Of a stretch of 64,000 bases of DNA, positions 22,832 to 46,189 are shown one piece after another. The stretch is from a virus (Duplodnaviria; Caudoviricetes). How positions within the stretch are numbered: the stretch's first letter is position 1; each line of letters starts with the position of its first letter. The notes under the pieces are model-generated. The model was given only the letters and a program-made list of their open reading frames with translations. It was not told the DNA's origin and made no database searches. The stretch lies in IMG/VR virus record IMGVR_UViG_3300033121_001789, positions 32,001-96,000 of that record; one strand, given 5' to 3'. Made by a program: the position numbers and the translations under genes.

Positions 22832-23011
22832 ATGGGCGACTTAATTAAAAAAACTACTTTGTCTGATGAGGAAATTTCCTTACTAAGAGAAAAATTTCTG
22901 GTTGAATATTCTAAGAAAAAAGGATGGAATCCTAAAGAATTATCAACAACACAAATGTTAGAAATAGCTACTCAGAAAGAGTACAAAAATCCAGGTTTAA
23001 TATTAGGATAA
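22832..23011 (+). CDS. Hypothetical protein (59 aa, not in ORF track)
   Basis: MGDLIKKTTLSDEEISLLREKFLVEYSKKKGWNPKEL...PGLILG; fills intergenic gap. Confidence 0.6.
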   Translation: MGDLIKKTTLSDEEISLLREKFLVEYSKKKGWNPKELSTTQMLEIATQKEYKNPGLILG

Positions 23012-24043
23012 TCTAAAAATTAGATCTAGATCTGATACCGGTATATTTTCTAATTCCTCAATAAGGTACATTAAATCTTCTCTATCTCCTAAATGTTCTG
23101 AAATGCCATCATGTTCAACTATACAGGTTTTACCATCCCACTTAATGCCTGTTAGATTGTAATAGCAATCCTGTCTTAGGATCCAAGAATAAATAAAAGA
23201 TCTTTCCTCCAAAAGTCTCTCATGTGAAAGTTTTGCCTTCCATTTTTCCTCTCCTATCCAAACATTTATTGTTGATGATTCAGGTGAATCATATGATACC
23301 TTATATCTATCATAATCATATTTAATATGCGGATCTCTCATAATAGGAAGAGAATTCCAATCGACTTTAACCACCGCTTCACAAAGTTGTGATAAAAATA
23401 AAATATCTTGCTTTTCACAAAATTGATGTTCGTTAAAATAACCAACAGATATATTTGTACACTCTGGGATAACTTCCATAAATGATGCGGAATCTGTAAA
23501 AACTCCTGTGCTATCCGGACGATAGTCAAATGATAAATTAGCTTTATTCAAAGATTTTGATAATTCCTTAGCGAATTCATCTGAGCAGCAAGGACCATAT
23601 AATTGTTCAGTTATAACCGAATTATAACCTCGTCTATCAAAAGAGACACACTTATTATACCCCATAAAAAATGGGGAATCCGCAACAGCAGAGGACCCAA
23701 GACCACCTACTTCTTCACCAAGGAAGAAATAATAAAGACCTGGTACTTTATTATGAATCATATAAAGCATGATCGTTACACCAGCTTTATCATCAGCTCC
23801 TAATATTGTTTTACCATCTGTTTTAATGAAACGACTTCCAATATGGTGTTTAACTTTCTCAAATTTAGTACAACAAGTATCTAAATGTGATGTAAATAAT
23901 GTATCACTATCTCCAATTTTTAAATAGTAATTTCCAAAATCATCCTCTCTTATCCCCTTAGGGAGTAAATCTTTGAGTTTATACTCAGTTTCATACGGAT
24001 ATGTATATTTTGTAAGTTGTAAGAATGTTTCTCGTATATTCAT
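23003..24043 (-). CDS. M28/M20-like zinc peptidase, paralog 1
   Basis: SHLDT, GADDKAG, GEE, FDRR, TDSA, TNISVGYFNEH. Confidence 0.85.
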   Translation of the reverse strand: MNIRETFLQLTKYTYPYETEYKLKDLLPKGIREDDFGNYYLKIGDSDTLFTSHLDTCCTKFEKVKHHIGSRFIKTDGKTILGADDKAGVTIMLYMIHNKVPGLYYFFLGEEVGGLGSSAVADSPFFMGYNKCVSFDRRGYNSVITEQLYGPCCSDEFAKELSKSLNKANLSFDYRPDSTGVFTDSASFMEVIPECTNISVGYFNEHQFCEKQDILFLSQLCEAVVKVDWNSLPIMRDPHIKYDYDRYKVSYDSPESSTINVWIGEEKWKAKLSHERLLEERSFIYSWILRQDCYYNLTGIKWDGKTCIVEHDGISEHLGDREDLMYLIEELENIPVSDLDLIFRLS

Positions 24044-24046
24044 ACA

Positions 24047-24054
24047 CAAATATA
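24047..24054 (-). promoter_or_regulatory. Bacteroidota-type -7 promoter element TAnnTTTG (also 38039-38046 and 43951-43958)
   Basis: TATATTTG or TATCTTTG a few nt upstream of gene or tmRNA starts. Confidence 0.55.
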
Positions 24055-24060
24055 CGAAAT

Positions 24061-24603
24061 TTAATTAATATTTCCTAATAAATTGTCTAATTTAAAATCC
24101 CTAATATATTGTGTTTTAAGAGATTCTAAGTCGGTTTCCCAACCATCTACTAATGACTTAATCATATAATTTTTATTGGATAAAAAGTTACCATCAGTAA
24201 TAATAGTATCAAATTGATATATTGTATCGAATCTACAAGTAGCATCAAATACTCTACCCTTTTTTAAAAATCCATCTCTTTTCTCACGAATAAAATAATC
24301 ATGAGTATCTTCAATAATAAATATTATATCAATATTTGGCACAATTTTTCTAATTTCCCTTAAATACCATTTAACGTCGTATGGGTAGATAATTGCGATA
24401 ATGTCAATATTATAAAGATGATCTTTTATTTCATCCAACACCTTATTAATTTGAATGTTTTTTGTAACTCCGATATCTTTTCCGATACCAAGTATATTCT
24501 TGCCTAAAAGTTCTTGAAAATCAAGAACTCTTTTTATGCCGTATATAGAAGAGGCATCAGTTTTTACAAAAAGATTATTAGATTTGAGTTTTATCACAAA
24601 CAA
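24061..24603 (-). CDS. Hypothetical protein with C-terminal IRDFKLDNLL motif
   Basis: 180 aa ORF. Confidence 0.6.
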   Translation of the reverse strand: MFVIKLKSNNLFVKTDASSIYGIKRVLDFQELLGKNILGIGKDIGVTKNIQINKVLDEIKDHLYNIDIIAIIYPYDVKWYLREIRKIVPNIDIIFIIEDTHDYFIREKRDGFLKKGRVFDATCRFDTIYQFDTIITDGNFLSNKNYMIKSLVDGWETDLESLKTQYIRDFKLDNLLGNIN

Positions 24604-25982: not shown

Positions 25983-25992
25983 TTAATATATA
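25983..25992 (+). promoter_or_regulatory. Putative phage late promoter TTAATATATA (representative of 15 or more copies)
   Basis: Same 10-mer just upstream of starts at 12107, 16017, 22408, 41153, 42321, 51033, 59082 (+) and 4182, 25950, 43963, 45797, 46196, 53930, 58085 (-); palindromic copy at 34222-34241. Confidence 0.7.
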
Positions 25993-25996
25993 AGAA

Positions 25997-28900
25997 ATGA
26001 AAAACCTCAGACTATTTGAAGAAATGGATACGGAAATAGGGGCAGAAAAGCCAAAACAAAAAAATTCCGAGAAAACAAAGACTCCAATTTTAGATGCTAT
26101 TGGAAAAGATTTAACAAAATTAGCGGCTGAAGAAAAATTAGAGCCAGTACAAGGGAGAGAAGAAGAGATTCAAGAAGTACTTCTAATATTAGGTAGGAAA
26201 ACAAAAAATAATCCAGTTATAATTGGTGAGCCAGGAGTTGGTAAAACTGCCATAGTTGAGGGAATTGCTCAAATGATAGCTAGCAAAAAGTGTCCTCGTG
26301 CAATTCAAGGCAAAAGGATTATATACGTTGATATGGGATCTTTAATTGCTGGAGCTTCTAAACAAGGTGAATTTGAAATGCGTATTAAATCGCTGTTAGA
26401 GGAATTAGAAAAAAATAAAGATATACTATTATTTATAGATGAAATTCATATGATGGTCAATCCAAATATGTCAATTGATGCTGCAAACATGTTTAAACCA
26501 GCTTTGGCTCGTGGTGATATGAGATTGATTGGAGCTACAACTCTAAATGAATTTAGAAATTCAATTGAGAAAGATGGTGCACTTGACAGGAGATTTCAAA
26601 AAGTTATTATTGAAGAACCAACAAATGAACAAACATTAGCAATTTTAAATCGAATTAAAAGTAGATATGAAGACTATCATTTAGTTAAATATACTGATGA
26701 CGCAATACTAGCATGTGTTAAATTAAGTGGGAAATACATAACTGATAGATTTTTTCCAGATAAGGCTATCGATTTAATGGATGAGGTTGGATCTAAAGCT
26801 AGATTATTAGCTCCGGACAATGAGCCTGAGGAAATAGTTAAGTTGGCAAAAAAAGTTGACGAATTAAAAGCTGAGATCATGGTAAAGACAAAGGCTCAGG
26901 ATTACCAAAAAGCTGTAGAATTAAGACAAGTTGAAAAAAGACTATCTGAAGAATTAGCAGATAAAAGAAGTAAATTAGATATACCAAAGGTCGAAGTAAA
27001 TAAAAATGATGTTGCCAAAATAATATCTAAAAAAATAGGAGTACCAGCTGAGAAAATAACATCTGATGAAGGAGAAAAACTTCTAAAAATGGAAGATGAT
27101 TTAAAATTACAAATAATAGGACAAGATGAAGCGGTTTCCAAAATATCTAAATGCATTCGTAGAAGTCGAGCTGGACTAAGAGACCCAAAAAAACCAGCAG
27201 TATTTTTATTCTTAGGATCAACAGGGACAGGTAAATGTCATGGAAGAGGGACAAAAATACTAATGTATGATGGATCTATTAAAAATGTTGAAGATATTAA
27301 AGTAGGAGATCAATTAATGGGTGACGATTCTAAACCTAGAAATGTTCTTTCATTAGCCACAGGCAAAGACAATATTTACAAGATAAAATATAAATCTGGT
27401 AGCTTTACTTGCAATTCTGAACATATTTTATCACTAAAAGAAACTGGAAAATATAACATAATCAATATACCATTAAATGAATATTTGAAAAAAAATAAAA
27501 CATTTAAACACACACACAAATTATGGAGCACTAAAGTTGAATTTGAAGAATCAAAAATAACAATTGATCCTTATATGATCGGACTTTGGCTAGGAGATGG
27601 TGATAAAAATAGAGTTTCTATAACAACTGCTGATTCTGAGATAGTGAACTATTTGGAAAATACAGCTAAAAATTATAACCTAAAAGTTTATAAAAACAAT
27701 TTGAAAAATAACAAGAGTGATGTATATTGTCTAACTGGAGAAAACTGGACAAACAATAAAAATGAATTACTAAATGAATTTAGGAATTATGGACTAATAG
27801 ACAAAAATAAAAATTATACCAAATTCATACCCGATATTTATCTACATAATTCAATAGAAAATAGGAAAAAATTGTTATCTGGACTAATTGATAGTGATGG
27901 ATATATTTCCAACAATTGTTATCTAATAACCACAAAATATAGTGAACTAGCTGATCAAATAGTTTATCTATGCAAATCTCTTGGATATATGGCAACAAAG
28001 TCAAAAAAAGATGTTAAGAAATATCCAAAAAATACTTATTATAATATAAACATATCTGGAGATTTTGATTTAAATTCTTATATTCTTTTAGATAGGAAAA
28101 AACACAAATCAAGAAATCAAAAAAAGAATGTTAATTTATTCTCCTTTGATGTAGAACATATCGGATATGATGACTACTTTGGATTTGAATTAGATGGCAA
28201 TCATCTATATTTGTTGCAAGATTTTGTTGTAACACATAATACACATACCGTAAAAACATTAGCTAAATATTTATTTGGATCTGAAGATGCGATGATAAGA
28301 TTTGATATGAGTGAGTATGGAGAGAAACATAATGTTTCGAGATTAATTGGCTCCCCTCCAGGATATGTAGGATATGGTGAAGGAGGACAACTAACCGAGA
28401 AAGTTAGAAGAAAGCCATATTGTATAATATTATTAGATGAGTTAGAAAAAGCTCACCCAGAAGTATTAAATGTATTACTACAAGTTTTTGATGATGGACA
28501 ATTAACTGATGGACAAGGAAGAAAAGTTAATTTCAAAAATACTATTATAATAATGACATCCAATATAGGAAGTTCGGCAGTCAAAGATATGAGAATGCCA
28601 ATGGGGTTCAATGCATCGAAAATTTCTAGAAACGATAATATGAAAGATCTAATCAAAAAAGAATTAAAGAAAAAATTAGCTCCAGAATTTATTAATAGAA
28701 TCGATGATATAATTATATTCTCACAATTACCTAAAGAAAGTATATACAAAATTATTGATATTGAAATAAATAAATTATCAAAAAGAGTTGAAGAAATGGG
28801 TTATCATATCAGTATAACTGACAATGTTAGAAAATTAATAATGGATAATGGTTATGATGAGGAAATGGGGGCTAGACCGCTTAAAAGAGCTATTGAAACA

Positions 28901-29083
28901 CTAATAGAAGATCCTATATCTGAAGAAATTTTAAGAGGTGCTATAAAAGATGCCATAAATGTTGACTACGATCCACAAACTAAAAATTTAAGTATTAATG
29001 GGAATGTTATTAAAGAATCTTTAAAATTTATAAAGAAATTCAGAATGATAATTGAGAAAAAATTTCAGAAATTTAAATACTAA
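25997..29083 (+). CDS. ClpC/ClpB-family double AAA+ ATPase lacking the N-domain, intein-containing
   Basis: GEPGVGKT, FIDEIH, GATT..E, ALDRRF, short M-domain, GSTGTGK|T, DMSEY, GSPPGYVGY, LLDELEKAH, MGF loop, GARPL. Confidence 0.93.
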   Translation: MKNLRLFEEMDTEIGAEKPKQKNSEKTKTPILDAIGKDLTKLAAEEKLEPVQGREEEIQEVLLILGRKTKNNPVIIGEPGVGKTAIVEGIAQMIASKKCPRAIQGKRIIYVDMGSLIAGASKQGEFEMRIKSLLEELEKNKDILLFIDEIHMMVNPNMSIDAANMFKPALARGDMRLIGATTLNEFRNSIEKDGALDRRFQKVIIEEPTNEQTLAILNRIKSRYEDYHLVKYTDDAILACVKLSGKYITDRFFPDKAIDLMDEVGSKARLLAPDNEPEEIVKLAKKVDELKAEIMVKTKAQDYQKAVELRQVEKRLSEELADKRSKLDIPKVEVNKNDVAKIISKKIGVPAEKITSDEGEKLLKMEDDLKLQIIGQDEAVSKISKCIRRSRAGLRDPKKPAVFLFLGSTGTGKCHGRGTKILMYDGSIKNVEDIKVGDQLMGDDSKPRNVLSLATGKDNIYKIKYKSGSFTCNSEHILSLKETGKYNIINIPLNEYLKKNKTFKHTHKLWSTKVEFEESKITIDPYMIGLWLGDGDKNRVSITTADSEIVNYLENTAKNYNLKVYKNNLKNNKSDVYCLTGENWTNNKNELLNEFRNYGLIDKNKNYTKFIPDIYLHNSIENRKKLLSGLIDSDGYISNNCYLITTKYSELADQIVYLCKSLGYMATKSKKDVKKYPKNTYYNINISGDFDLNSYILLDRKKHKSRNQKKNVNLFSFDVEHIGYDDYFGFELDGNHLYLLQDFVVTHNTHTVKTLAKYLFGSEDAMIRFDMSEYGEKHNVSRLIGSPPGYVGYGEGGQLTEKVRRKPYCIILLDELEKAHPEVLNVLLQVFDDGQLTDGQGRKVNFKNTIIIMTSNIGSSAVKDMRMPMGFNASKISRNDNMKDLIKKELKKKLAPEFINRIDDIIIFSQLPKESIYKIIDIEINKLSKRVEEMGYHISITDNVRKLIMDNGYDEEMGARPLKRAIETLIEDPISEEILRGAIKDAINVDYDPQTKNLSINGNVIKESLKFIKKFRMIIEKKFQKFKY
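27236..28240 (+). mobile_element. Intein (335 aa) with LAGLIDADG endonuclease in NBD2 Walker A
   Basis: Starts CHGRGT after GTGK; ends VTHN before Thr+1; blocks IGLWLGDG and LSGLIDSDG. Confidence 0.93.
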
Positions 29084-36843: not shown

Positions 36844-37524
36844 TTAACACAATAATTCTATTTTACCTCTTGAAAATTCCTTGAAAGAGCATTGCTTATT
36901 AGTGGAATGATCAATAACTAAATCTTCTTTAATACGATAAGATCTTTTTTTATCCGATCGAGAACCCATACCAATTTGGTGTAATCGATTTCTATATTCT
37001 TTTTCGTCCCATTTTTCTTGTTCAATAGACTTTAACTTTTCCTCTAACCTTTTCCAAGCCAATTCTTCATTTTTCAATTGATCTCGAGTATCCTGGCATT
37101 TTATTTGAATTCCAGATGGTCTATGTGTCAAGATAACACAACTTGATACCTTATTAACATTTTGTCCACCCTTGCCACTACTTCTAGTATATTGTCTATC
37201 TACATCATTTCGATTTAAATGAAAGTGTAATTGATTATCCGGATCAATTAAAGCAACTGTAATAATAGAAGTTTGTGTCCTTCCTCTTTTTTCTGTCGAT
37301 GGTACTCTTATCCATCTATGTGGACCAATTTCATTTTTAAATAGATTTGAAACATTTTTCCCACTCAGTCAAATTGAGGCAAATCCATTCCTATCTTCAA
37401 TAATATCATATTTTAATCCATGATTTCTTGCAGTTTTAACATAAATATTTCTAAGATCCTCAACTAACATCTTAGAATCTAATCCGCCCTCAGCGGCTCT
37501 AATTTCTATAATGATTTTTTCCAT
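36844..37524 (-). CDS. RF1-like class I peptide chain release factor lacking domain 1, with one in-frame TGA at codon 52 (37369-37371)
   Basis: Manual translation: IEIRAAEGG...FASI*LSG...E.GPHRWIRVPSTEKRGRTQTS...SSGKGGQNVNK...THRPSGI...RSDKKRSY; PxT and GGQ intact; same frame on both sides of the TGA. Confidence 0.88.
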
Positions 37525-37529
37525 AATTA

Positions 37530-37616
37530 TTAATTTTTATTTTTGAGCAATAAATTGTTATTGTGATTGAATAATCACAAACCGCTAATAATTATGTATT
37601 CTAAATTTCATTTCAT
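37530..37616 (-). promoter_or_regulatory. Leader of the release-factor gene: overlapping uORFs and hairpin
   Basis: uORF A 37616-37530 MK*NLEYIIISGL*LFNHNNNLLLKNKN (two in-frame TGA); uORF B 37611-37585 MKFRIHNY-TAG; 8-bp hairpin 37561-37580; TAATATATA directly upstream. Confidence 0.5.
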
Positions 37617-37629
37617 TATATATTATAAT

Positions 37630-38034
37630 TCAAAATAAAAGTTCTTTTAAAATGAAGTTTCTCTTAACCTCACCAGGTAATATGTCTAATATTCCTCTCT
37701 TACTGACTATTAACTTATTATCTCTACTATAAGAACTATAAATAGTTTTCAATCTATCTCTTTTTGTACTATTACAATCTTCCATCCATATTGTTGATAG
37801 TGAATGATTGACCAATAACGCCCAAAATATGTAGTTATTCTCATAATTCATAACCCAGAAAGAATTGGACTTTGGATGTTCCTTAATGACTTCTTTTTTA
37901 TTTCTATTAGAATCATATTTTATCTCTGTAATATCCAATACCATGGTTGGGTAATGATCAATCGGATGATTACCTGGTTTATGAAAAGATGTTTTCTTAA
38001 ACCCCAAAGTTTTTAATTTCTTATGAATATTCAT
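37630..38034 (-). CDS. Hypothetical protein with C-terminal KRNFILKELL motif
   Basis: 134 aa ORF; TAnnTTTG upstream. Confidence 0.6.
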   Translation of the reverse strand: MNIHKKLKTLGFKKTSFHKPGNHPIDHYPTMVLDITEIKYDSNRNKKEVIKEHPKSNSFWVMNYENNYIFWALLVNHSLSTIWMEDCNSTKRDRLKTIYSSYSRDNKLIVSKRGILDILPGEVKRNFILKELLF

Positions 38035-38083
38035 ATTGCAAATATAATTAAAAAAAGTGATTTTCTAATTAAATATATATTGT

Positions 38084-38329
38084 ATGTATAAAGATACAAC
38101 TCCAACATTCAATTCCGGAAATCGAAAGATTGTCAATTATAAAGACTTTATTCAAAATATTGATAAAGAAAAAGAAGAATTGAAAACTGTTAAAAAGTCA
38201 TTCTCTAAAAATGAATTAGAGATTGGTTTAAAACAGCATAAATATAAATATAATAAAGTCACTCACAAATTAGATGACTTGACACCAGACGAAGTAGATG
38301 ATAAATTAGATAACTTAGAAGAGAATTAA
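38084..38329 (+). CDS. Hypothetical small protein
   Basis: 81 aa ORF; AATATATA upstream. Confidence 0.6.
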   Translation: MYKDTTPTFNSGNRKIVNYKDFIQNIDKEKEELKTVKKSFSKNELEIGLKQHKYKYNKVTHKLDDLTPDEVDDKLDNLEEN

Positions 38330-38694
38330 AAATCATAACTCTCATCTAATAAATTATTAATTCTCAATTGTCTATTTACCTTACCAGTTATATCACCAAG
38401 TGATTCTATCTTTGATAGATATGCCTCATCTTTTGTATCTATCCACTTCTTTAAAATCTTATTATTTTTAAAATACCAAGAATTAAATTCATCAAAAACA
38501 ATATCTAAAGCTGAAAGAAAAGTATAATCAGCAGTTAAAGGATGTGTGTAAATTAAGACAAAAACATCCTCAGTGAGTGAAAGTTCCTCTGAAGAAAAAT
38601 CCTCATATATAATGGTGATATCTCGACCCCAGCTCAAATTCAGTGTAAATCCCAATTTGATTATCCTGTCCAGTTTTGAAACGTCCATCTTCAT
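38326..38694 (-). CDS. Hypothetical protein
   Basis: 122 aa ORF; near-terminal NRQLRINNLL. Confidence 0.55.
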   Translation of the reverse strand: MKMDVSKLDRIIKLGFTLNLSWGRDITIIYEDFSSEELSLTEDVFVLIYTHPLTADYTFLSALDIVFDEFNSWYFKNNKILKKWIDTKDEAYLSKIESLGDITGKVNRQLRINNLLDESYDF

Positions 38695-39376
38695 TTACTA
38701 TATAGTCAATTTTACGATCTCTTTGCTCTGAAATATATTCATTATACCCATACATATAGTCATCCTCAAAGATAAATATAACCTCCGGATAGAAAACCTC
38801 AAACTTTAAATCACAAGTAATTGATGTATATCCGGTAACTGATCCAGGTCTAAAAGTATCATTAAAATGTTGTATATTTGATATATCAACATTAATAGAC
38901 TTAAATGATACTATGTGATTTGACTTCCAAGTCTCAAATGGATTAACATAGACATCAATATAATCAAATTTTCCTATCGGATAAATCGTTTTACCATTCA
39001 AATTACTTAGCGAATTATGTGTGAAATGTAAAGAATCTTGTAAATCTGCTGCTATTCTAGCTCCAGAAACAATTTTCGAGTTTTTGTCTAATGTAGGTAT
39101 TAAATATAAATTATCAAATTTAGAAGGATTGTGTGATTTTCCTCTAAAATCTAAAAATCTCTTCTTACCATGATTGAAAATAGATGCAAATATCTTTTTC
39201 TCAATACACTGTGAAATTTCATCAATCAAAATTTGATTGAAATATGATTCAACATCAATATTAAAAAATTGAGAAGCTACAGGATTAGAAACTGAAACTT
39301 GTACTCTTTCGGGCATAACCCCTGATACAATTGATTTATTAAAACAAGAAAACTTAAAGTTATCACTTGATATCAT
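38603..39376 (-). CDS. Truncated, divergent paralog of the major capsid protein
   Basis: ILIDEISQCIEKKIF, IVSGARIAADL and IYPIGKFDYIDVYVNPF..WKSNHIV align with ILVNELSQTISKQIV, ITNGGLAAAL and LYPVGTIGDIQIYVDPY..YSDNRIV of 46991-48736. Confidence 0.7.
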   Translation of the reverse strand: MISSDNFKFSCFNKSIVSGVMPERVQVSVSNPVASQFFNIDVESYFNQILIDEISQCIEKKIFASIFNHGKKRFLDFRGKSHNPSKFDNLYLIPTLDKNSKIVSGARIAADLQDSLHFTHNSLSNLNGKTIYPIGKFDYIDVYVNPFETWKSNHIVSFKSINVDISNIQHFNDTFRPGSVTGYTSITCDLKFEVFYPEVIFIFEDDYMYGYNEYISEQRDRKIDYIVNEDGRFKTGQDNQIGIYTEFELGSRYHHYI

Positions 39377-39758
39377 TTATTTCATTTATTTTATTAGTTG
39401 TTGAATATCCTCCTATTTTGCTAAAAAATATAATATTCGGCACATTTTCAGATCCAATGACTTTTTTGTCCTTATAATCATCCCCTAGTATTATATAATG
39501 CGGATTCCATAATTTAATTTGATCCTCTAATTCTTTATCTGTGCCAAAACTAACAACAGAATCAACATATTTAATACTTTCCATCATTACTATTCTATCA
39601 GATAATTTATTAATAGGTCTAGATGTACCTTTAAGTTCTTTAACTCTATTGTCTTTATCAATACCAACACGAACAGTCCCATATGAGTTTGCGAATTTTA
39701 ATAACTCGATGTGTCCTCGATGTAAAATATCAAAAGTACCATTTACCCAAACTCTCAT
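39363..39758 (-). CDS. Cytidylyl/adenylyltransferase (HldE-II/TagD-like)
   Basis: NGTFDILHRGH, VGIDKD..VKELKG..RP, GDDY, YSTT. Confidence 0.9.
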   Translation of the reverse strand: MRVWVNGTFDILHRGHIELLKFANSYGTVRVGIDKDNRVKELKGTSRPINKLSDRIVMMESIKYVDSVVSFGTDKELEDQIKLWNPHYIILGDDYKDKKVIGSENVPNIIFFSKIGGYSTTNKINEINDIK

Positions 39759-40132
39759 ATTTGTGAATCTCCTTTAAAAATTCTATAAGAATCACTATCA
39801 AAATGTTGTGTTGATACTTCAAAAACAACACCATCTGTAATAGCCTCCAATTGATGTGGCTGACCTGGATATTGTCGAACAGAATCACCCACATTTAATA
39901 GAACCTCACAAATAGTAGCTTTATCTGTATCTATATAACGATAAATAAATTGACCCTCATTTACATACCAAGTCTCATCCTTTATCATATGATAATGCAT
40001 TGAAAATTTACAACCTTTTTTAAAAACAAGTAATTTCCCACAATAGAGGTTGTTATTTGCTATAATAATTTCATGTCCCCATCCCTTAGGAACCTTACAC
40101 TCATCACATTTTATAATCTTTGGTAATTCCAT
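39755..40132 (-). CDS. Cupin protein (sugar isomerase-like)
   Basis: KGWGHE, SMHYHMIKDETWYV, PGQPH, EVST.H.DSDSYR. Confidence 0.85.
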   Translation of the reverse strand: MELPKIIKCDECKVPKGWGHEIIIANNNLYCGKLLVFKKGCKFSMHYHMIKDETWYVNEGQFIYRYIDTDKATICEVLLNVGDSVRQYPGQPHQLEAITDGVVFEVSTQHFDSDSYRIFKGDSQI

Positions 40133-40135
40133 AAT

Positions 40136-41083
40136 TTATATTTTATTAAAATTTTCATCATAATTCATTATCAGTAATTCAGTTCCTTTTAATTGTTCTC
40201 CTTTTAGTTGGTGATTATTTCCACCCATCGCCGATCTGCGCACAACATCTCTTTGAATCCATCTATATTTCTCTCTTGGTAGTAATTCATCCAAAAGAGG
40301 AAAGTAATAATATGATAATGACCATTTTGATTTGGTTGTTTTAATTAATTCTATTAATCTTCTATGTGATGCCGGTCCAAAAACACCATCAGCATCAGCA
40401 CCATACCAAAATAATCTTTTAGAATCATCATCTTTTTCACCATTAAATCTAGCATATGGCGGGTCCAAATAAATATATGTACTTTCAGAATCATATTTTT
40501 TTATTAATTCCTCGAAGTCTGTACTATACCAATGTGTGATAGAATTTAATTTATCAGTATAAGTATTTTTCTTTAATTTATTAATTAATACACTTAATTT
40601 AAGTTTATCTTGTTTTTTAATATACCCGGAGAATCCGCCACCCCTAGGATAAACTGAGGAAAAACTCGAAGTTATTAAAAAAGCATATATAGCTGCCCTT
40701 TCAAAGTCTCCTAATTCGAAATCCTTATTATCAAGAAAATCATTTTTTGTATATTCCCTATAAACAGATTTATAAAAATCCCATTTCAAATTTACATCTG
40801 TTTCATTAGTATATAAAATTCCCCCAGTAGACAATAATTTATTAATTGAATCTAATAATTTATCTGGTGTAGCGGCGCACTTATATAAGTTTGCTTGATG
40901 TTTATTAATATCATTAAAAATTACATTTTCAAAAACCATATCAGGATCATCCATAAATGTTGCAAAACTACCTGAAAATGGCTCAATATATGTTTTGATA
41001 TTATTCTTTGGGATGTTTGGATTTATAAGATGTTTGACAAAGTCATTAGAAGATTTAGATCCGAAGTAAGATATTAAAGACAT
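40136..41083 (-). CDS. Dam-like (D12 class) DNA adenine methyltransferase
   Basis: YFGSK, YIEPFSGS, NDIN, YLDPPY, ELLIMNY. Confidence 0.88.
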   Translation of the reverse strand: MSLISYFGSKSSNDFVKHLINPNIPKNNIKTYIEPFSGSFATFMDDPDMVFENVIFNDINKHQANLYKCAATPDKLLDSINKLLSTGGILYTNETDVNLKWDFYKSVYREYTKNDFLDNKDFELGDFERAAIYAFLITSSFSSVYPRGGGFSGYIKKQDKLKLSVLINKLKKNTYTDKLNSITHWYSTDFEELIKKYDSESTYIYLDPPYARFNGEKDDDSKRLFWYGADADGVFGPASHRRLIELIKTTKSKWSLSYYYFPLLDELLPREKYRWIQRDVVRRSAMGGNNHQLKGEQLKGTELLIMNYDENFNKI

Positions 41084-41166
41084 AATTAAAGTTTAGAAAT
41101 TATAGATTAAAAAATAAATATGTTTAGGTAATCAATGGGAAGACAAATTGATTTAATATATAAAAT

Positions 41167-41826
41167 ATGATAATTTATAAAATAACAAATTTAATTAATA
41201 ACAAAGTATATATAGGACAAACAACCGAAAGTCTTCAAAAAAGATGGAAAAGACATACATCCGAATACCATGAAAAAAATATGTATATATCAAGAACAAT
41301 ATCTAAATATGGCGAAAAAAATTTTATTATAGAAAAGATATGTGAATGTTATTCTTTACAAGAATTAAATGAAAAAGAAATTTTTTATATAAATGAATAT
41401 GATTCTCTATCACCGAATGGGTACAATCTTGTTGTAGGTGGTAATAATAGTAAAATGAGCGATGAAACAAAATTAAAAATATCCAATAGCCACAAAAAAA
41501 GATATCTAGATGGTAAAGTTATCTCTGAAGAAACTAGGAAAAAATTGTCAGAATCACATAAAGGATGGATTCCATCAGAAGAAACTCGTCAAAAATGGAG
41601 AGATGCCTTCTCTGGAAAAAAACCATCCGAGAAAACAAGAATCGGTGCCATATCACATCATCAAAAAACATATACCTTTGAAAGTCCAGATGGTGAAATA
41701 ATTACTTTTACAAATATGAAAGATTTTTGTAAAAAAAATAATTTATGCAATTCTAAATTATGTTTGGTCGCATCTGGTAAAAGAAACCACCATAAAGGAT
41801 GGAAATTACACAAATCACATTTGTAA
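41167..41826 (+). CDS. GIY-YIG homing endonuclease with NUMOD3 repeats
   Basis: IIYKITNLINNKVYIGQT...R; SEETRKKLSESHKG repeats. Confidence 0.9.
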   Translation: MIIYKITNLINNKVYIGQTTESLQKRWKRHTSEYHEKNMYISRTISKYGEKNFIIEKICECYSLQELNEKEIFYINEYDSLSPNGYNLVVGGNNSKMSDETKLKISNSHKKRYLDGKVISEETRKKLSESHKGWIPSEETRQKWRDAFSGKKPSEKTRIGAISHHQKTYTFESPDGEIITFTNMKDFCKKNNLCNSKLCLVASGKRNHHKGWKLHKSHL

Positions 41827-42288
41827 TTTTTTAATATCATTACGAATCCTCATTAGAAGATTACCTAAGTTGTTTTCTCCTTTATTATTACACTTATTAC
41901 AAGTGCAAACTCCCCACCAGGTATCGTGCCAATAATTTCCCTCAATTAACATCTCATCTCCTGTCTGCAATAATAGTTCTTGTAGGTTTTTAATCTTGAA
42001 TTTTTCTCTTAATCCAAATTCCATAACCTTTAGACGAATTGAGTCCCAATCTGGTCTTAATTTAAAACCTCTACCCATTCTTTTAACCTGACCCGGAGTT
42101 AGAACTTTCGATACTAATTGTCGAGTATCTTCAAGTGTATAAAATTGACCATCAATTATTTGTCCTTCTTTTATTTTCATAGCAACATAATAATGTTCCA
42201 CAGATGGATAAACAATACCCTGATAAGTTATCTCACAAGGATAAAAATTTGATAAAAAAAACCATCGACCTTTAAATGAATCTATCAT
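41815..42288 (-). CDS. NADAR (YbiA-like) family protein
   Basis: FLSNFY, SVEHYY.A.K, W...R..VM...L..KF, LL.TGD..LIEGNYWHDTWWG, GENNLG.LLM.IR. Confidence 0.92.
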   Translation of the reverse strand: MIDSFKGRWFFLSNFYPCEITYQGIVYPSVEHYYVAMKIKEGQIIDGQFYTLEDTRQLVSKVLTPGQVKRMGRGFKLRPDWDSIRLKVMEFGLREKFKIKNLQELLLQTGDEMLIEGNYWHDTWWGVCTCNKCNNKGENNLGNLLMRIRNDIKKLQM

Positions 42289-42334
42289 AATAATTTTATA
42301 TCTTTAATTAATAATAATGTTTAATATATAATTA

Positions 42335-43495
42335 ATGACAAAAGAAGAATTCAAAAATATATTCATAGAATTAACAAACTACACAATTCCATTTGGAAAA
42401 GAAAAATTATTAGAAAAACATCTACCAAAGGGATTTAAGAAAGATAATATTGGAAATTACTACTATGAAATAGGAAATTCTGAAACATTATTTACATCAC
42501 ATTTAGATACATTTTCAAAAAAATACGAAAAGGTTAATCATGTAATTGACGAAGATGATCCATATATTATATCCACAGACGGTAAAACTATCTTAGGTGG
42601 GGATAATAAATTAGGATGTACTATTTTGTTTGGCATGATTAAAAATTCTATACCAGGAACTTATTACTTTTTTCTTGGAGAAGAGCCAATTTTAAGTGGT
42701 GGATTATGGGGTTCAAGAAATGCATTAGAAAGTAATTTTGAATATTTCAAAAAATTTAAAAGATGTATCGCATTCGATAGAAAGCAGTATGGATCAATTG
42801 TTGTTCGTCAAATGGGTCGTATGTGTTGTTCTAAAGAATTCGCTAGTGAAATTGCCAAACAATTAAAAATTGGTGGAATTAATTGGGACGAATCTGTTGG
42901 ATTTGGATATTATACAGATACCGCCGTTTTCATGGATGTAATACCAGAATGTACAAACATATCAGCAGGTGGATTTAATGAACATTATAAGAGTGAATGG
43001 GTCGATCTAAATTATACATATAATGTTTATAAGTCAGCATTAAAAATTAAATGGGAGGAACTACCGACTAATAGAAAGTTAGAAGTTAGATTTTCAGATG
43101 AGGAAAAAGAAACAATAAATAAAGACTTCAAGAAATTTCAACAAATAAAGATATATAAAGAAATAGAATCTATGACAGAATTAGTAGATCTATCCAAAAC
43201 GAGAGACATATCTAAAAATGGAGAAAGATATTTAACATTCTCAAAATGGCTTGAAGATTATGACTTGGATATAACTTTGTCAAATAGTAAAATTATTATA
43301 AATGGTAAAGAATTATCAATGAATCAGTTAAAAAGATTAATTCTTACAGAATTCAGGGAAGATATACTCGATCAAATAAAGTATTATATAGAAATGAAAG
43401 AAAAAAAGGAATTAGATAAGATACTTTATATCTTTGGATTCAAAACAATACCAGAAATAATTAAATTTCTTAAAACAAAAAAAAGAGGAAAATAA
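42335..43495 (+). CDS. M28/M20-like zinc peptidase, paralog 2
   Basis: SHLDT, GGDNKLG, GEE, FDRK, YTD, TNISAGGFNEH. Confidence 0.83.
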   Translation: MTKEEFKNIFIELTNYTIPFGKEKLLEKHLPKGFKKDNIGNYYYEIGNSETLFTSHLDTFSKKYEKVNHVIDEDDPYIISTDGKTILGGDNKLGCTILFGMIKNSIPGTYYFFLGEEPILSGGLWGSRNALESNFEYFKKFKRCIAFDRKQYGSIVVRQMGRMCCSKEFASEIAKQLKIGGINWDESVGFGYYTDTAVFMDVIPECTNISAGGFNEHYKSEWVDLNYTYNVYKSALKIKWEELPTNRKLEVRFSDEEKETINKDFKKFQQIKIYKEIESMTELVDLSKTRDISKNGERYLTFSKWLEDYDLDITLSNSKIIINGKELSMNQLKRLILTEFREDILDQIKYYIEMKEKKELDKILYIFGFKTIPEIIKFLKTKKRGK

Positions 43496-43508
43496 TTTCC
43501 TCTTTTTT
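43479..43508. terminator. Bidirectional intrinsic terminator
   Basis: AAAAAAGAGGAAA-ATAA-TTTCCTCTTTTTT between the peptidase and the tmRNA. Confidence 0.75.
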
Positions 43509-43516
43509 GATAAACC

Positions 43517-43562
43517 GTTCAGATATTTACCCTGTTTAAAACTGTTCAGATATTTACCCTGT
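43517..43562. repeat. 19-bp direct repeat GTTCAGATATTTACCCTGT, two copies, period 27
   Basis: Copies at 43517-43535 and 43544-43562, just 3' of the tmRNA. Confidence 0.85.
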
Positions 43563-43573
43563 CTATCGTTTGG

Positions 43574-43941
43574 TGGTGGAGGCGGAGGGTTCGAATCCTC
43601 GTCTTCCTCAGTTAGATACAACCAATCATTTACAAGCTTAGTTAATTTTTCTAAACTAACAAAATAATAAATTTTTTCGACTCAAAAAATATTTATAAAA
43701 AACTATCACGATTTTTATCTGTTGGATTCAGAGGTAAATTTCTTGAAATATCAATTAAGCCATTTCAAACTCATTCACCATGAGTAAGTTGTTTTGTAGG
43801 GCAGCTACTAAATCTTCACTGGTTCCCACTTCGTTTGTTTTGCCGATTACGACATTCGCCATTTAATTTTTAATCGGTTATATGACAATCCGATACTTGC
43901 TCAATTACACCTAGGACCGCGAATCAATACATTACGCCCCC
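43574..43941 (-). ncRNA. ssrA: tmRNA (368 nt); predicted tag (A)GKTNEVGTSEDLVAALQNNLLMVNEFEMA at 43844-43755
   Basis: 5' GGGGGCG pairs with CGCCUCC-ACCA (G3.U Ala identity); GAC then T-arm GAGGA-UUCGAA-CCCUC; resume context GUAAUC-GGC. Confidence 0.9.
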
Positions 43942-43992
43942 ATATTTCTACAAAGATACAATTATATATTAAATTATCAAAATGTTTTTTTT

Positions 43993-45792
43993 CTAAAATG
44001 GAGCAGAATCATCAAATTTATCCACAAGTGAGTATCTATCATCATCCTCATCGTCGTCATCAGAATAATCTTCCTCAGCATCTTCCCAAGTAAATGAAAA
44101 TTTCAATATTGGGAAACCATCCTTACTTTCATACAACTCCACCTCAACATTATACTTTGAAAGTAATTCTTCTTTAACACGACCAACAACATCAAATGCT
44201 TTTAAAAGTGTTGAAATTTTCTCTCGGTGTTTTAAAAATGTATAAACATTCAAATCATATTCTTCAGATGTTACATTAACATCTAATCCATTAGAAACAA
44301 ACATTTGTTCAACCCAATAACATAATTCCTCAATATCATCTTTAAATCCACCTGATTCCTCCAAAGAATGTAATGATTCATATGTAGTATCATCATCAAC
44401 ACCATAATAGTCATGATATTTTTTAAAAACAGGATCAACTGTTAATTCAATCTTAATTATACTATCATCAAATGTGAGTGTCGGATCCATACTATGTATA
44501 TTAAACATCTCACTTAAATTTAAAAAATCATCCTGTACTAATTCTACATCGGATTCGTCCATATCTATTTTAAGAAATTCTATTCCATAAGATGACATCA
44601 ATTTTATATCTAAATTAAAAGCACATGACCGAAAATCATTTAAAAAATCCTTAAAATAATGTAAAAATAAATCACTAAATCCAATCTTTCTCTTAACTGT
44701 TAAATTCTCCCAATCAACCCCAACAGAAGCTTTTGCGAGCCTTTCAAGGAAAGAAATATTCTGAGATTCTCTATTTGTATGTTCATCAAAATATCCAACA
44801 GATATATTTGTACACTCTGGTATTTGGTCAATAAAAGATGCAGAGTCGGTATAAATTCCAGTATCGTCCAAATTAAATTTCATTCCATTTTTAGAATATT
44901 CAGCCGCTAATGAATGTGCAAATTCATCTGAACAACATTCTGCAAACATTTGTGATGTAATAATTGAATAATAATTTCTCCTATCAAATGATACGCATTT
45001 TTTCAATCCTTTAAGATGCTCAAATGATTCAAATTCTTTTGAGACTTTACCAGATCCAATTCCACCTCTTTCTTCACCAATAAAGAAATAATAAACACCA
45101 GGTACATTATGAGCAATCATGTACAATAGTACAGTAACTCCTGATTTATCATCGGCTCCTAAGATAGTTGTACCATCGCTAACAATATGCTCTTGTCCAT
45201 CTATCATTCTGCTATATAAAACCACATTTGTTTGCTTCCTATCTGCGGTATCAAGGTGACAAGTAAACATAGTTGTTGATTTACCTACTATTTTATAATA
45301 GTTTCCAAATTTATCTTTTGTTAGACCTATCTGTGATATCAAAGGATAAACATCATCTTCTTGTGGATGTGGATATGTTTTAGTCACCAATGATATGAAA
45401 GTATCTCGAACATTTTTAGGATTAAACTTAAATTCTGGAACCACAATTAACGTTGAATTACCAAAAGACTTGATTGGTTTTTTTTGTTTTTTTGCCTTTA
45501 ATGTATTATACTTGATTGTAAATTTTTTGATCTCATCTTCAGTAAATTGATCAGGAAAAAATTTACGAATCATATATCCAACTTTTATCGGATTATACTT
45601 CCCACCTATTTTAGCATTAAATGACCAATCATGTCTCGACATATCTAATTGCTCAATTCCCAAAGTGTCTGCGGCAATTGAAATATCATTCTCAACTCTC
45701 ATAAGTTTATCTGATATCTTATCCTCTATATCATCAAAAATATCATACAAATCATCAGTATATTTTATGGGCATTGGTCTATTCTTAATCAT
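43993..45792 (-). CDS. M28/M20-like zinc peptidase, paralog 3, with N- and C-terminal extensions
   Basis: CHLDT, GADDKSG, GEE, FDRR, YTDSA, TNISVGYFDEH; acidic tail. Confidence 0.85.
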   Translation of the reverse strand: MIKNRPMPIKYTDDLYDIFDDIEDKISDKLMRVENDISIAADTLGIEQLDMSRHDWSFNAKIGGKYNPIKVGYMIRKFFPDQFTEDEIKKFTIKYNTLKAKKQKKPIKSFGNSTLIVVPEFKFNPKNVRDTFISLVTKTYPHPQEDDVYPLISQIGLTKDKFGNYYKIVGKSTTMFTCHLDTADRKQTNVVLYSRMIDGQEHIVSDGTTILGADDKSGVTVLLYMIAHNVPGVYYFFIGEERGGIGSGKVSKEFESFEHLKGLKKCVSFDRRNYYSIITSQMFAECCSDEFAHSLAAEYSKNGMKFNLDDTGIYTDSASFIDQIPECTNISVGYFDEHTNRESQNISFLERLAKASVGVDWENLTVKRKIGFSDLFLHYFKDFLNDFRSCAFNLDIKLMSSYGIEFLKIDMDESDVELVQDDFLNLSEMFNIHSMDPTLTFDDSIIKIELTVDPVFKKYHDYYGVDDDTTYESLHSLEESGGFKDDIEELCYWVEQMFVSNGLDVNVTSEEYDLNVYTFLKHREKISTLLKAFDVVGRVKEELLSKYNVEVELYESKDGFPILKFSFTWEDAEEDYSDDDDEDDDRYSLVDKFDDSAPF

Positions 45793-45802
45793 TTCTTATA
45801 TA

Positions 45803-46189
45803 TTAAATATTAATATTAATTTCTTCAGCGTTCTTATAATCAACTTTTACCTGTCCAATATTCATTTCTGGTAATTTCTTAACGAATTTTGACTTACAAC
45901 AAATAACTATACAATTTCCAGTAACTTTTGAATTTTTAGCAACAATTTCAGCTGCTTTATGTTTCACCTCTTTTGTTATCAATCTATCTTTTTGTCTAAT
46001 AATAGCATGACACCCTGGTTTTCCCTTAACATGGAACCATAAATCCTCAGGATCTGCCATAATTGTTGTTAAATAATCATTTGATTTCCCATCCCTACCA
46101 AAAATTAGTGTATAATCATCTATAATTATCGTTCTTAAATTTGGAAATTTATCCTTGGACTCGTTAAAAGAAATAAAATTCTTTATCAT
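45803..46189 (-). CDS. Stand-alone NFACT-R (DUF814; RqcH/FbpA RNA-binding domain) protein
   Basis: GRDGKSNDYLT...DLWFHVKGKPGCHAII...AAEIVA.NSK...VKK....GQV. Confidence 0.85.
   Translation of the reverse strand: MIKNFISFNESKDKFPNLRTIIIDDYTLIFGRDGKSNDYLTTIMADPEDLWFHVKGKPGCHAIIRQKDRLITKEVKHKAAEIVAKNSKVTGNCIVICCKSKFVKKLPEMNIGQVKVDYKNAEEININI

Follow-up and report, generated by a model that had tools for sequence, protein, structure and literature searches.

Is a group of translation-rescue and peptidase genes in the genome of a lake phage one working system, or are genes with separate histories simply found close together there? The question is raised by a stretch of 64,000 nucleotides, referred to here as the window, which corresponds to bases 32001-96000 of a 109,852-bp viral contig in IMG/VR (IMGVR_UViG_3300033121_001789). 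An earlier note, made from the letters of this DNA, had drawn attention to positions 36844-46189, in which it recognised a truncated release factor with a GGQ motif, a transfer-messenger RNA (tmRNA), a stand-alone NFACT-R protein and two M28-like peptidases within 10 kb, with a ClpC-like ATPase further to the left, and it had regarded them as a clustered toolkit serving counter-defence. All of these genes are present at or close to the places where the note had put them. Our best reading, for which we would give a probability of about one half, is that three of them, encoding the NFACT-R protein, a predicted exopeptidase and a divergent tmRNA, form a conserved block related to ribosome rescue, and that the others are unrelated accessory genes which lie nearby.

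The contig has a GC content of 28% and was estimated by CheckV to be about 20% complete, giving a phage genome of roughly 0.5 Mb. Pfam searches of the window identified a gp23-like major capsid protein (MCP) with a prohead protease gene adjoining it. The closest named genomes are two entries deposited as 'uncultured phage', LR745206 (635 kb) and LR756502 (642 kb), with an MCP that is 66% identical; both have been assigned to the Mahaphage clade with predicted hosts among the Bacteroidetes (Al-Shayeb et al., 2020, PMC7162821). Because of the hosts predicted for these relatives, and because of a TTTG-N19-TAnnTTTG element found 5' of the tmRNA, the hosts of the clade to which the window belongs are probably Bacteroidota. 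Comparisons were made with these two in-clade GenBank genomes, with three related records which are 95-98% complete and, for synteny, with 54 distinct loci; a megablast search of the 9.5-kb region against GenBank phages gave no matches. A reassigned stop codon across the whole contig was considered and rejected, as ORFs (open reading frames) of at least 100 aa cover 93% under code 11 and TGA serves as a stop.

In the window, the genes for the NFACT-R protein (128 aa; 45803-46189) and for a 599-aa peptidase (43993-45792) and the tmRNA gene (43574-43941) are consecutive and all on the minus strand, just as had been described. Across the related loci, the NFACT-R gene lies directly upstream of the peptidase gene on the same strand in 49 of 51 cases, with gaps of only 10-40 nt although the identity of the peptidase drops to 37%, and the tmRNA lies downstream of the peptidase on the same strand in 43 of 46; the order is unchanged in both LR756502 and LR745206. 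The adjacency of the trio is thus seen at 43-49 of about 50 loci, whereas the wider 10-kb grouping does not recur; independent occurrence across relatives is what we found for the larger set of genes and not for the trio. The MCP is upstream of the block at 47 of 48 loci. At one locus (L206, from a 174-kb contig), however, the NFACT-R gene, the peptidase, its separately encoded C-terminal module and the tmRNA are contiguous and neither the MCP, the prohead protease nor the NADAR gene is found in the neighbourhood, and in one protein (P0134), encoded on a 629-kb contig, NFACT-R and the peptidase are naturally fused. The trio is a strongly conserved block of this clade, and in L206 it persists without its capsid-gene context. 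A second fusion, in L206, was rejected as it proved to be two separate ORFs, and a search of longer homologues yielded no further NFACT-R::peptidase fusion.

The transcription signals agree with a separation from the capsid genes. The motif TAATATATA is found 13-15 nt before the start codon of both the NFACT-R and the peptidase genes (15 nt in the case of NFACT-R, with a hairpin terminator before the motif). Neither the MCP nor the prohead protease gene has this motif, and hairpin terminators follow the MCP and orf206; because of these intervening terminators, and of the absence of the motif from the capsid genes, the block is not part of the capsid transcription unit, and an MCP operon extending into NFACT-R and the peptidase, each with its own promoter motif, was rejected. 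The motif itself is a general one, with 39 sites in the 110-kb contig, 5' of many unrelated genes; some 35 ORFs have it 13-35 nt before their start, in many cases with about 13 nt between motif and ATG (for example, at window positions 25984, 42322, 45805 and 46204). This suggests a phage-specific promoter from which near-leaderless mRNAs would be made, and a regulon specific to the supposed toolkit was rejected on the same grounds.

The NFACT-R protein scores 45.5 bits against PF05670 (cut-off 29.8) and matches residues 457-538 of Bacillus subtilis RqcH (E 5e-8), with a weak direct match to CCDC25 (E 6.5e-5). In 26 aligned NFACT-R sequences D49, W51, H53, G59 and H61 are invariant, forming the motifs D-x-W-x-H and P-G-x-H; in RqcH the DWH motif contacts the A-site finger, and its mutation abolishes binding to the 50S subunit (bioRxiv 10.1101/2020.09.03.281279). 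The ORF is free of the NFACT-N, HhH and coiled-coil/M domains, and it is the terminator and promoter motif which lie upstream of it. An exhaustive HMMER search recovered about 45 clusters of short, phage-type NFACT-R proteins and thereafter full-length RqcH. Among 185,579 species genomes the cellular homologues are at most 44% identical, and of the 80 nearest, 79 have the size of RqcH, with frames of around 577 aa; Bacillota are the main source, and no clan-MH peptidase gene adjoins any of them. The stand-alone form thus looks phage-specific, and it is confined to this clade among the huge-phage records compared. A possible functional parallel is offered by yeast Jlp2. This protein, likewise a solo NFACT-R protein, is reported to hydrolyse the peptidyl-tRNA of 60S and 80S complexes, and the activity needs one conserved His (H44; H41 in CCDC25), which Rqc2 does not have (bioRxiv 10.1101/2025.09.04.673968). 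Alignment coordinates put H53 of the phage protein at this position (42 residues of the query being aligned with 41 of CCDC25), in agreement with the H-x-D spacing that the preprint describes.

The product of the second gene is a predicted di-zinc exopeptidase of clan MH, matching PHROG 4191 (E about 1e-62); IMG/VR contains no fewer than 187 relatives of it, and the contigs that carry them reach 483 kb. Its first 105 residues form an N-domain, the catalytic domain spans aa 124-366, and two small alpha/beta modules follow. The predicted metal ligands and catalytic residues H179, D181, D214, E240, E241, D270 and H338 are invariant in an alignment of 24 sequences that includes both of the peptidases in the 10-kb region. 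An AlphaFold2 model (pLDDT 80) has PepT as its best Foldseek match (4e-9), and in structural comparison (VIA) it resembles PepT 3gb0 (Z 24.8, root mean square deviation 2.5 Å over 229 aa) more than TET1 of family M42 (Z 22.0) or the M28 aminopeptidase AAP, 1rtq (Z 17.7). The description 'M28-like' therefore stands at the level of the clan and not for M28 itself: neither window peptidase (599 or 386 aa) gives any Pfam match, a homologue from a Klebsiella phage scores 18.4 bits against PF04389 (M28), where the cut-off is 21.3, and the PepT NCBIfam model gives 31.6 bits against a cut-off of 274. The lid of M20 enzymes is absent, with 68 residues between D270 and H338 and a single catalytic domain in the model.

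Of the additional domains of the 599-aa protein, the N-domain is modelled with confidence (pLDDT 78), but when compared alone with the PDB (VIA) it has no counterpart (best Z 4.3); its matches in BFVD are only the N-termini of uncharacterised marine-phage proteins, a search of the contig with hidden Markov models revealed no other copy, and the look-alikes of the extra domains in the ESM Atlas were uninformative. The C-module (aa ~480-599; the C-terminal ~130 aa, window 43993-44390) has an ORF of its own in most relatives; here and at five other loci (L004, L005, L007, L065 and L068) it is fused to the peptidase. It ends in a long acidic tail, ...DDDDEDDD...FDDSAPF, which in our view resembles the acidic tails of SSB and T7 gp2.5 type.

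The third member of the block is a divergent, one-piece tmRNA (ssrA), supported by Rfam RF00023, ARAGORN and covariation. It aligns over the full length of the 374-position Rfam model with 41.7 bits (E 5e-14), which is below the gathering score of 47, and ARAGORN detects it only when the threshold is relaxed to 90% (-ps90), so that it was recovered neither by default ARAGORN nor by Rfam at the gathering score; ARAGORN -ps90 misses even the copies in LR756502 and LR745206. Homologues were found by nhmmer at about 70 loci. Many of these have no encoded CCA and a non-canonical T-loop, which is why the standard detectors fail on the tmRNA of this clade. In the window the acceptor stem is GGGGGCG/CGCCUCC with G3:U70 and an ACCA end in which the CCA is encoded; across relatives the stem covaries at positions 5-6 with G3:U70 kept (GGGGGCG/CGCCUCC, GGGGGUG/CACCUCC, GGGGAUG/CAUCUCC and GGGGAAG/CUUCUCC). 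RNAalifold, run on 20 homologues, showed compensatory changes in 22 of 40 consensus pairs and recovered helix 2 and the hairpin of pseudoknot 1 (PK1), the one pseudoknot covered. On the strength of this covariation the tmRNA is real, despite its divergence.

Its tag reading frame (43755-43844, minus strand) was predicted by ARAGORN to begin with the resume codon GGC, which is also the codon that Rfam aligns to the consensus resume codon, and to comprise 29 sense codons and TAA; the peptide would be GKTNEVGTSEDLVAALQNNLLMVNEFEMA, followed by the stop. The frame, with its core ..EVGT.EDLVAALQNN.., is retained in 38 of 47 distinct homologues. At least seven of 15 core codons show wobble-only changes (Ala GCN, Leu CTA/TTA, Asp GAT/GAC, Asn AAC/AAT and Val GTA/GTG), and because several tag codons vary only at the wobble base, this points to conservation at the amino-acid level and to selection acting on the peptide. 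Upstream of the tmRNA (43951-43985, minus strand) is a promoter-like element of Bacteroidota type (TTTG ... TAtcTTTG), overlapping a phage TAATATATA motif; in 35 of 50 relatives the tmRNA is preceded by the form TTTG-N19-TAnnTTTG. A bidirectional hairpin terminator (43479-43508) lies between the tmRNA and the convergent gene of a 386-aa peptidase.

Trans-translation needs a partner for the tmRNA, and the phages appear to bring their own. SmpB (167-181 bits) is encoded in all three of the 95-98% complete relatives, in LR756502 and LR745206 and in four further huge-phage records, far from the tmRNA in every relative examined. With the tmRNA in nearly all relatives and SmpB in every near-complete one, the proposal of phage-encoded rescue parts is borne out.

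Taken together, these features make the following scheme the most likely one. The tmRNA would be transcribed from its own host-type promoter and, together with the distantly encoded phage SmpB, would, during infection, free 70S ribosomes that have stalled on mRNAs which are broken or have no stop codon; the rescued chains would receive a clade-specific tag of about 27-29 residues in place of the short tag of the host. The NFACT-R protein may be the 50S-anchoring domain of RqcH cut loose, docking on large subunits or ribosomes which hold peptidyl-tRNA, and the protein may, as Jlp2 is reported to do in yeast, use its invariant His53 to release the chain itself. The adjacent exopeptidase, possibly in physical association with it, would then trim or degrade the freed peptides and thereby recycle amino acids. 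The RF1-like gene, both additional copies of the peptidase, and the genes for the Clp ATPase and for ClpP are inherited separately and stand outside the system of the block. The parts themselves, their intact catalytic or binding motifs, the synteny counts and the co-occurrence of SmpB with the tmRNA in relatives are observed; all of the biochemical activities in this scheme, the physical pairing and the fate of the tagged proteins are what we infer.

The rival that survives best is that the block reflects nothing but backbone synteny, the peptidases being general scavenging or processing enzymes and the NFACT-R protein a generic nucleic-acid binder, neither of them tied to the tmRNA or to ribosomes. 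Several observations favour this view and weigh against a common function for the block. Throughout the clade the whole 15-kb stretch, which runs from the prohead protease through the MCP, NFACT-R, peptidase, tmRNA and NADAR to Dam, keeps a collinear order, and because of this, adjacency is no proof that a function is shared. A promoter-like element of its own precedes the tmRNA gene, and at two of the 46 loci (L032 and L040/41) an inversion has carried this gene off with NADAR and Dam, away from the peptidase. SmpB is not on the contig of the window, which represents about 20% of the genome. Outside the clade the tmRNA is independent of NFACT-R: three records (735, 636 and 345 kb) contain SmpB and no NFACT-R, and the 636-kb genome has a canonical tmRNA amid its tRNA genes. 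The peptidase family appears to be expanded in these phages, as there are four to six paralogues per genome in the published huge-phage relatives and three in the window. Members of the family are found, too, in podophages with small genomes (KP34-like, Vibrio OWB and Thermus P23-45), which are far too small to be relatives within the clade and in which there is no known link to a tmRNA or NFACT-R, the neighbours having been read in one phage only; at that locus, in a Klebsiella podophage, the neighbours are replication genes and not NFACT-R. Because its catalytic core is found in podophages beside replication genes, the peptidase is not intrinsically tied to ribosome rescue. As for the NFACT-R protein, the solo NFACT-R protein CCDC25 is reported to bind DNA, as cited in the Jlp2 preprint (bioRxiv 10.1101/2025.09.04.673968). 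The equivalence of H53 with H44 of Jlp2 and H41 of CCDC25 is, moreover, one drawn from alignment coordinates and not from a residue-level alignment, and the Asp two residues beyond the Jlp2 His is Lys in the phage family. Bacterial RqcH carries the His of the D-W-H motif too and, to our knowledge, has no known peptidyl-tRNA hydrolase activity.

Against the backbone alone stand the persistence of the block in L206, where the capsid-gene context has been lost, the tight NFACT-R/peptidase junction, which has been maintained whilst the peptidase sequences diverged, the fusion in P0134, and the invariance in the phage proteins of the residues with which RqcH binds the ribosome. It is because of the L206 block and the fusion that we argue for more than backbone order, the fusion, a singleton, lending weak support. 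On balance we consider backbone synteny alone to be rather unlikely as the full explanation.

The reading of a conserved rescue-related block can also be taken a good deal further. In its most ambitious form, the NFACT-R protein would be a Jlp2-like, His-dependent release factor, the first in the bacterial and phage world, paired with an exopeptidase to clear obstructed 50S subunits, beside an orthogonal tmRNA/SmpB pair whose private tag would be read by the phage Clp and ClpP. If this were true, giant phages would import a complete, host-independent pathway of rescue and peptide recycling into hosts without RqcH. This joint proposal strikes us as unlikely to hold in all its parts.

A further question concerns the meaning of the tag. 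The phage tag is about three times as long as the common bacterial tags, and it might contain no degradation signal, marking instead some phage-specific fate or a harmless termination. Its 27-29 residues with a conserved core, and C-termini of EMA, EVA, ATV or SLV, never LAA, would be in keeping with this. However, these C-termini stay small and hydrophobic, like those of known degrons, the clade has genes for ClpP and for a Clp ATPase whose loop is of the ClpP-docking type, and long tags which function as degrons occur in Mollicutes. We therefore regard a tag devoid of any degron as doubtful.

The remaining genes of the supposed toolkit have histories of their own. The release factor had been described as truncated; the GGQ factor is there, but the ORF listed with 95 aa (36844-37131; Pfam RF-1, E 2e-15) is the tail of a longer gene of 226 codons (36844-37524, minus strand). 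The frame from the ATG at 37524 contains release-factor domain 2 and the PST (VPSTE) and GGQ (SSGKGGQ) motifs, and is broken only by a TGA at 37369-37371 (ATT TGA CTG). It covers positions 105-332 of the RF1 model, domain 1 being the part that is missing, and NCBIfam ranks it as prfA (184.8 bits; cut-off 400) ahead of prfB (128.5) and prfH (78.9; TIGR03072, cut-off 166.65), all of these scores being below the cut-offs. An in-frame TGA occupies one and the same alignment column in each of the six intact homologues (59-73% identity), in the contexts ATC TGA ATT, ATC TGA CTA, ATT TGA CTG and ATC TGA ATA; homologues were compared from the loci L087, L089, L090, L012, L026 and L091. In the last of these (44% identity) the TGA is replaced by a +1 frameshift at CUU UAG C, which by its sequence is the prfB motif with an RF1-specific stop codon. 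These features suggest programmed recoding and not decay. An opal-suppressor tRNA was not found among the six tRNAs of the contig nor among the 67 of a 211-kb record (G004). Phage genes for RF1 and RF2 have been reported from recoded phages (bioRxiv 10.1101/2021.08.26.457843); the present contig, by contrast, is read with the standard code.

The RF-like gene has a sporadic distribution and an inheritance separate from that of the block. None of the three 95-98% complete relatives has it, and its occurrences within the clade are confined to a few loci (L010/11, L012 and L026), always with a 134-aa ORF (37630-38034, minus strand), which is itself restricted, in a tblastn map of the related loci, to those carrying the RF-like gene; the family of this ORF is unknown, Pfam, PHROG and NCBIfam giving no match. 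Conversely, G004, an unrelated huge phage that holds the locus L090, has a UGA-interrupted RF1-type gene, its 67 tRNAs, SmpB and ClpP, but neither NFACT-R nor a homologous peptidase, and across its 211 kb a tmRNA could not be detected.

The Clp/Hsp100 ATPase (25997-29083, plus strand) has two AAA+ rings (Pfam AAA, AAA_lid_9, AAA_2 and ClpB_D2-small; NCBIfam), and both its loop and its position had been correctly noticed: the region begins 7.8 kb beyond its end, and a PMGF loop lies at aa 868-871, about 120 aa past the P-loop of D2, a position we take to be equivalent to that of the IGF loop of ClpA. It has no N-domain, as profile matches start at ClpB/ClpA positions 140-152 and there is no Clp_N Pfam match. 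A Hint and LAGLIDADG intein (aa 414-747; window 27236-28237, plus strand) is inserted within the Walker-A P-loop of D2 (GSTGTGK/C...HN/T). The gene is a clade-wide one whose position is not linked to the block: the orthologues in the three near-complete relatives are intein-free proteins of 710-717 aa encoded more than 150 kb from the tmRNA; ClpP is present in two of the three, and in relatives more than 100 kb separates the block from ClpP and from SmpB. Of the further peptidases, the 386-aa paralogue (42335-43495, plus strand; PHROG 4191, E about 1e-55) is without the N-domain and its C-terminal extension differs from that of the 599-aa protein; among related loci second copies are limited to L028, L030 and L043-47 in the tblastn map. 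The third paralogue (23006-24064, minus strand) is recognised by tblastn, with 51% identity over 263 aa to the peptidase of L206.

It is against this distribution that the counter-defence proposal has to be judged, in which the RF-like factor, tmRNA, NFACT-R, peptidases and Clp act as one system to keep translation running when tRNA or mRNA is cut or ribosomes are stalled. Many defences do target tRNA or mRNA, all of the parts are here within about 20 kb, several of them share the TAATATATA promoter-like motif, and the phage also encodes tRNAs, with a cluster of six genes (three for Glu, one each for Tyr and Met and a sixth whose anticodon loop is irregular) outside the window at contig positions 3758-4735. 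However, the motif is far too general to define a system, the RF-like gene comes and goes irrespective of the block, and Clp, ClpP and SmpB are dispersed in the relatives. Among the companion genes that had been suggested for checking, smpB was found in relatives, clpP in two of three and tRNAs on the contig itself, but RtcB is absent from all five records searched (G000-G004); nor was any defence-related context found for the rescue genes. A single system that includes the RF-like gene, the second peptidase and Clp is thus contradicted by their independent occurrence across relatives; we hold the counter-defence proposal to be very unlikely, and such a role for the block itself is speculation. 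That the NFACT-R protein is a decoy, occupying the RqcH site on the 50S subunit and so blocking the Ala-tailing quality control of the host, would suit a 50S-anchoring domain without the tRNA-recruiting NFACT-N and HhH parts, yet it is highly improbable if the host belongs to the Bacteroidota, because this phylum seems to be without RqcH (PF05670 has no match in the control genome of Bacteroides thetaiotaomicron) and a single one of the 80 nearest cellular homologues, from a Muribaculaceae metagenome-assembled genome (31% identity), comes from it.

Other neighbours may be of more interest with regard to defence. NADAR domains reverse the ADP-ribosylation of guanine by DarT-type toxins, and the NADAR gene (41815-42288, minus strand) may be a better candidate for counter-defence than the rescue genes. 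It lies, with a Dam methyltransferase gene (40136-41083, minus strand), 3' of the tmRNA in most relatives, and both moved with the tmRNA in the two inversions. Between Dam and NADAR in the window is a gene for a GIY-YIG/NUMOD3 homing endonuclease (41167-41826, plus strand), which occupies this site in only a few related contigs (L010/11, identical with L087/88, and L068/69) and looks like a mobile insertion. Separately, a 257-aa ORF at 38603-39376 (minus strand) has weak tblastn matches, of about 25% identity, within the MCP genes of LR756502 and LR745206; the matches agree with its being a degenerate paralogue of the capsid protein.

For huge phages, tmRNA, SmpB and release factors have been documented before, the tmRNA by Al-Shayeb et al. 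(2020, PMC7162821), and in the searchable literature we found no report of the NFACT-R/peptidase pairing, of the long conserved tag or of the recoded RF1-type gene. Huge-phage tmRNAs have probably been undercounted, as surveys leaned on ARAGORN or Rfam thresholds, both of which miss those of this clade. The conserved tag of 27-29 residues would imply a phage-specific fate for rescued chains, and the conserved UGA and the prfB-like CUU UAG C suggest that recoding may control a release factor other than RF2. Given the activity of Jlp2, the solo NFACT-R protein would be a natural candidate for a new class of peptide-release factor in the prokaryotic world, and it could reveal what the NFACT-R domain does on the ribosome.

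How, then, does the block compare with known systems? With tmRNA-SmpB trans-translation (RF00023) it shares an Ala-type acceptor with G3:U70, helix 2, PK1, a resume codon and a tag ORF ended by a stop, and the relatives likewise encode a canonical SmpB; it differs in the sub-threshold score of its tmRNA, in the clade-specific core of a 27-29-residue tag without an LAA end and in the fixed place of the gene behind those for NFACT-R and the peptidase. Compared with RqcH and NEMF, the phage protein has a homologous NFACT-R domain with the 50S-binding D-W-H invariant, but at only 128 aa, and without NFACT-N, HhH and coiled-coil/M parts, it cannot recruit tRNA-Ala or tail peptides in the manner of RqcH. 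Like Jlp2 and CCDC25 it is a stand-alone NFACT-R protein, and the conserved His in its D-x-W-x-H would correspond to H44 of Jlp2 and H41 of CCDC25, whereas in sequence it is nearer to bacterial RqcH than to CCDC25, it is without the C-terminal coiled-coil region and its gene is paired with that of an exopeptidase. The peptidase has the same catalytic fold as PepT (M20B), TET (M42) and the Aeromonas/Vibrio aminopeptidase (M28), with all of the metal ligands and the catalytic Asp and Glu, and belongs to the same family as the PHROG 4191 'peptidase' of KP34-like and other phages; it differs from those clan-MH enzymes in having no M20 lid or dimerisation domain, in falling below threshold in every Pfam model, and in its orphan N-domain, extra C-terminal modules, acidic ..PF tail and conserved pairing with NFACT-R. 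Amongst the accessory genes, the RF1-type gene shares with RF1 (prfA, its best profile) the GGQ and a PxT-type (PST) motif, but is truncated through the loss of domain 1 and interrupted by a conserved UGA; like PrfH it is without domain 1, but it has no RtcB partner, and unlike ArfB it has no ArfB-type tail.

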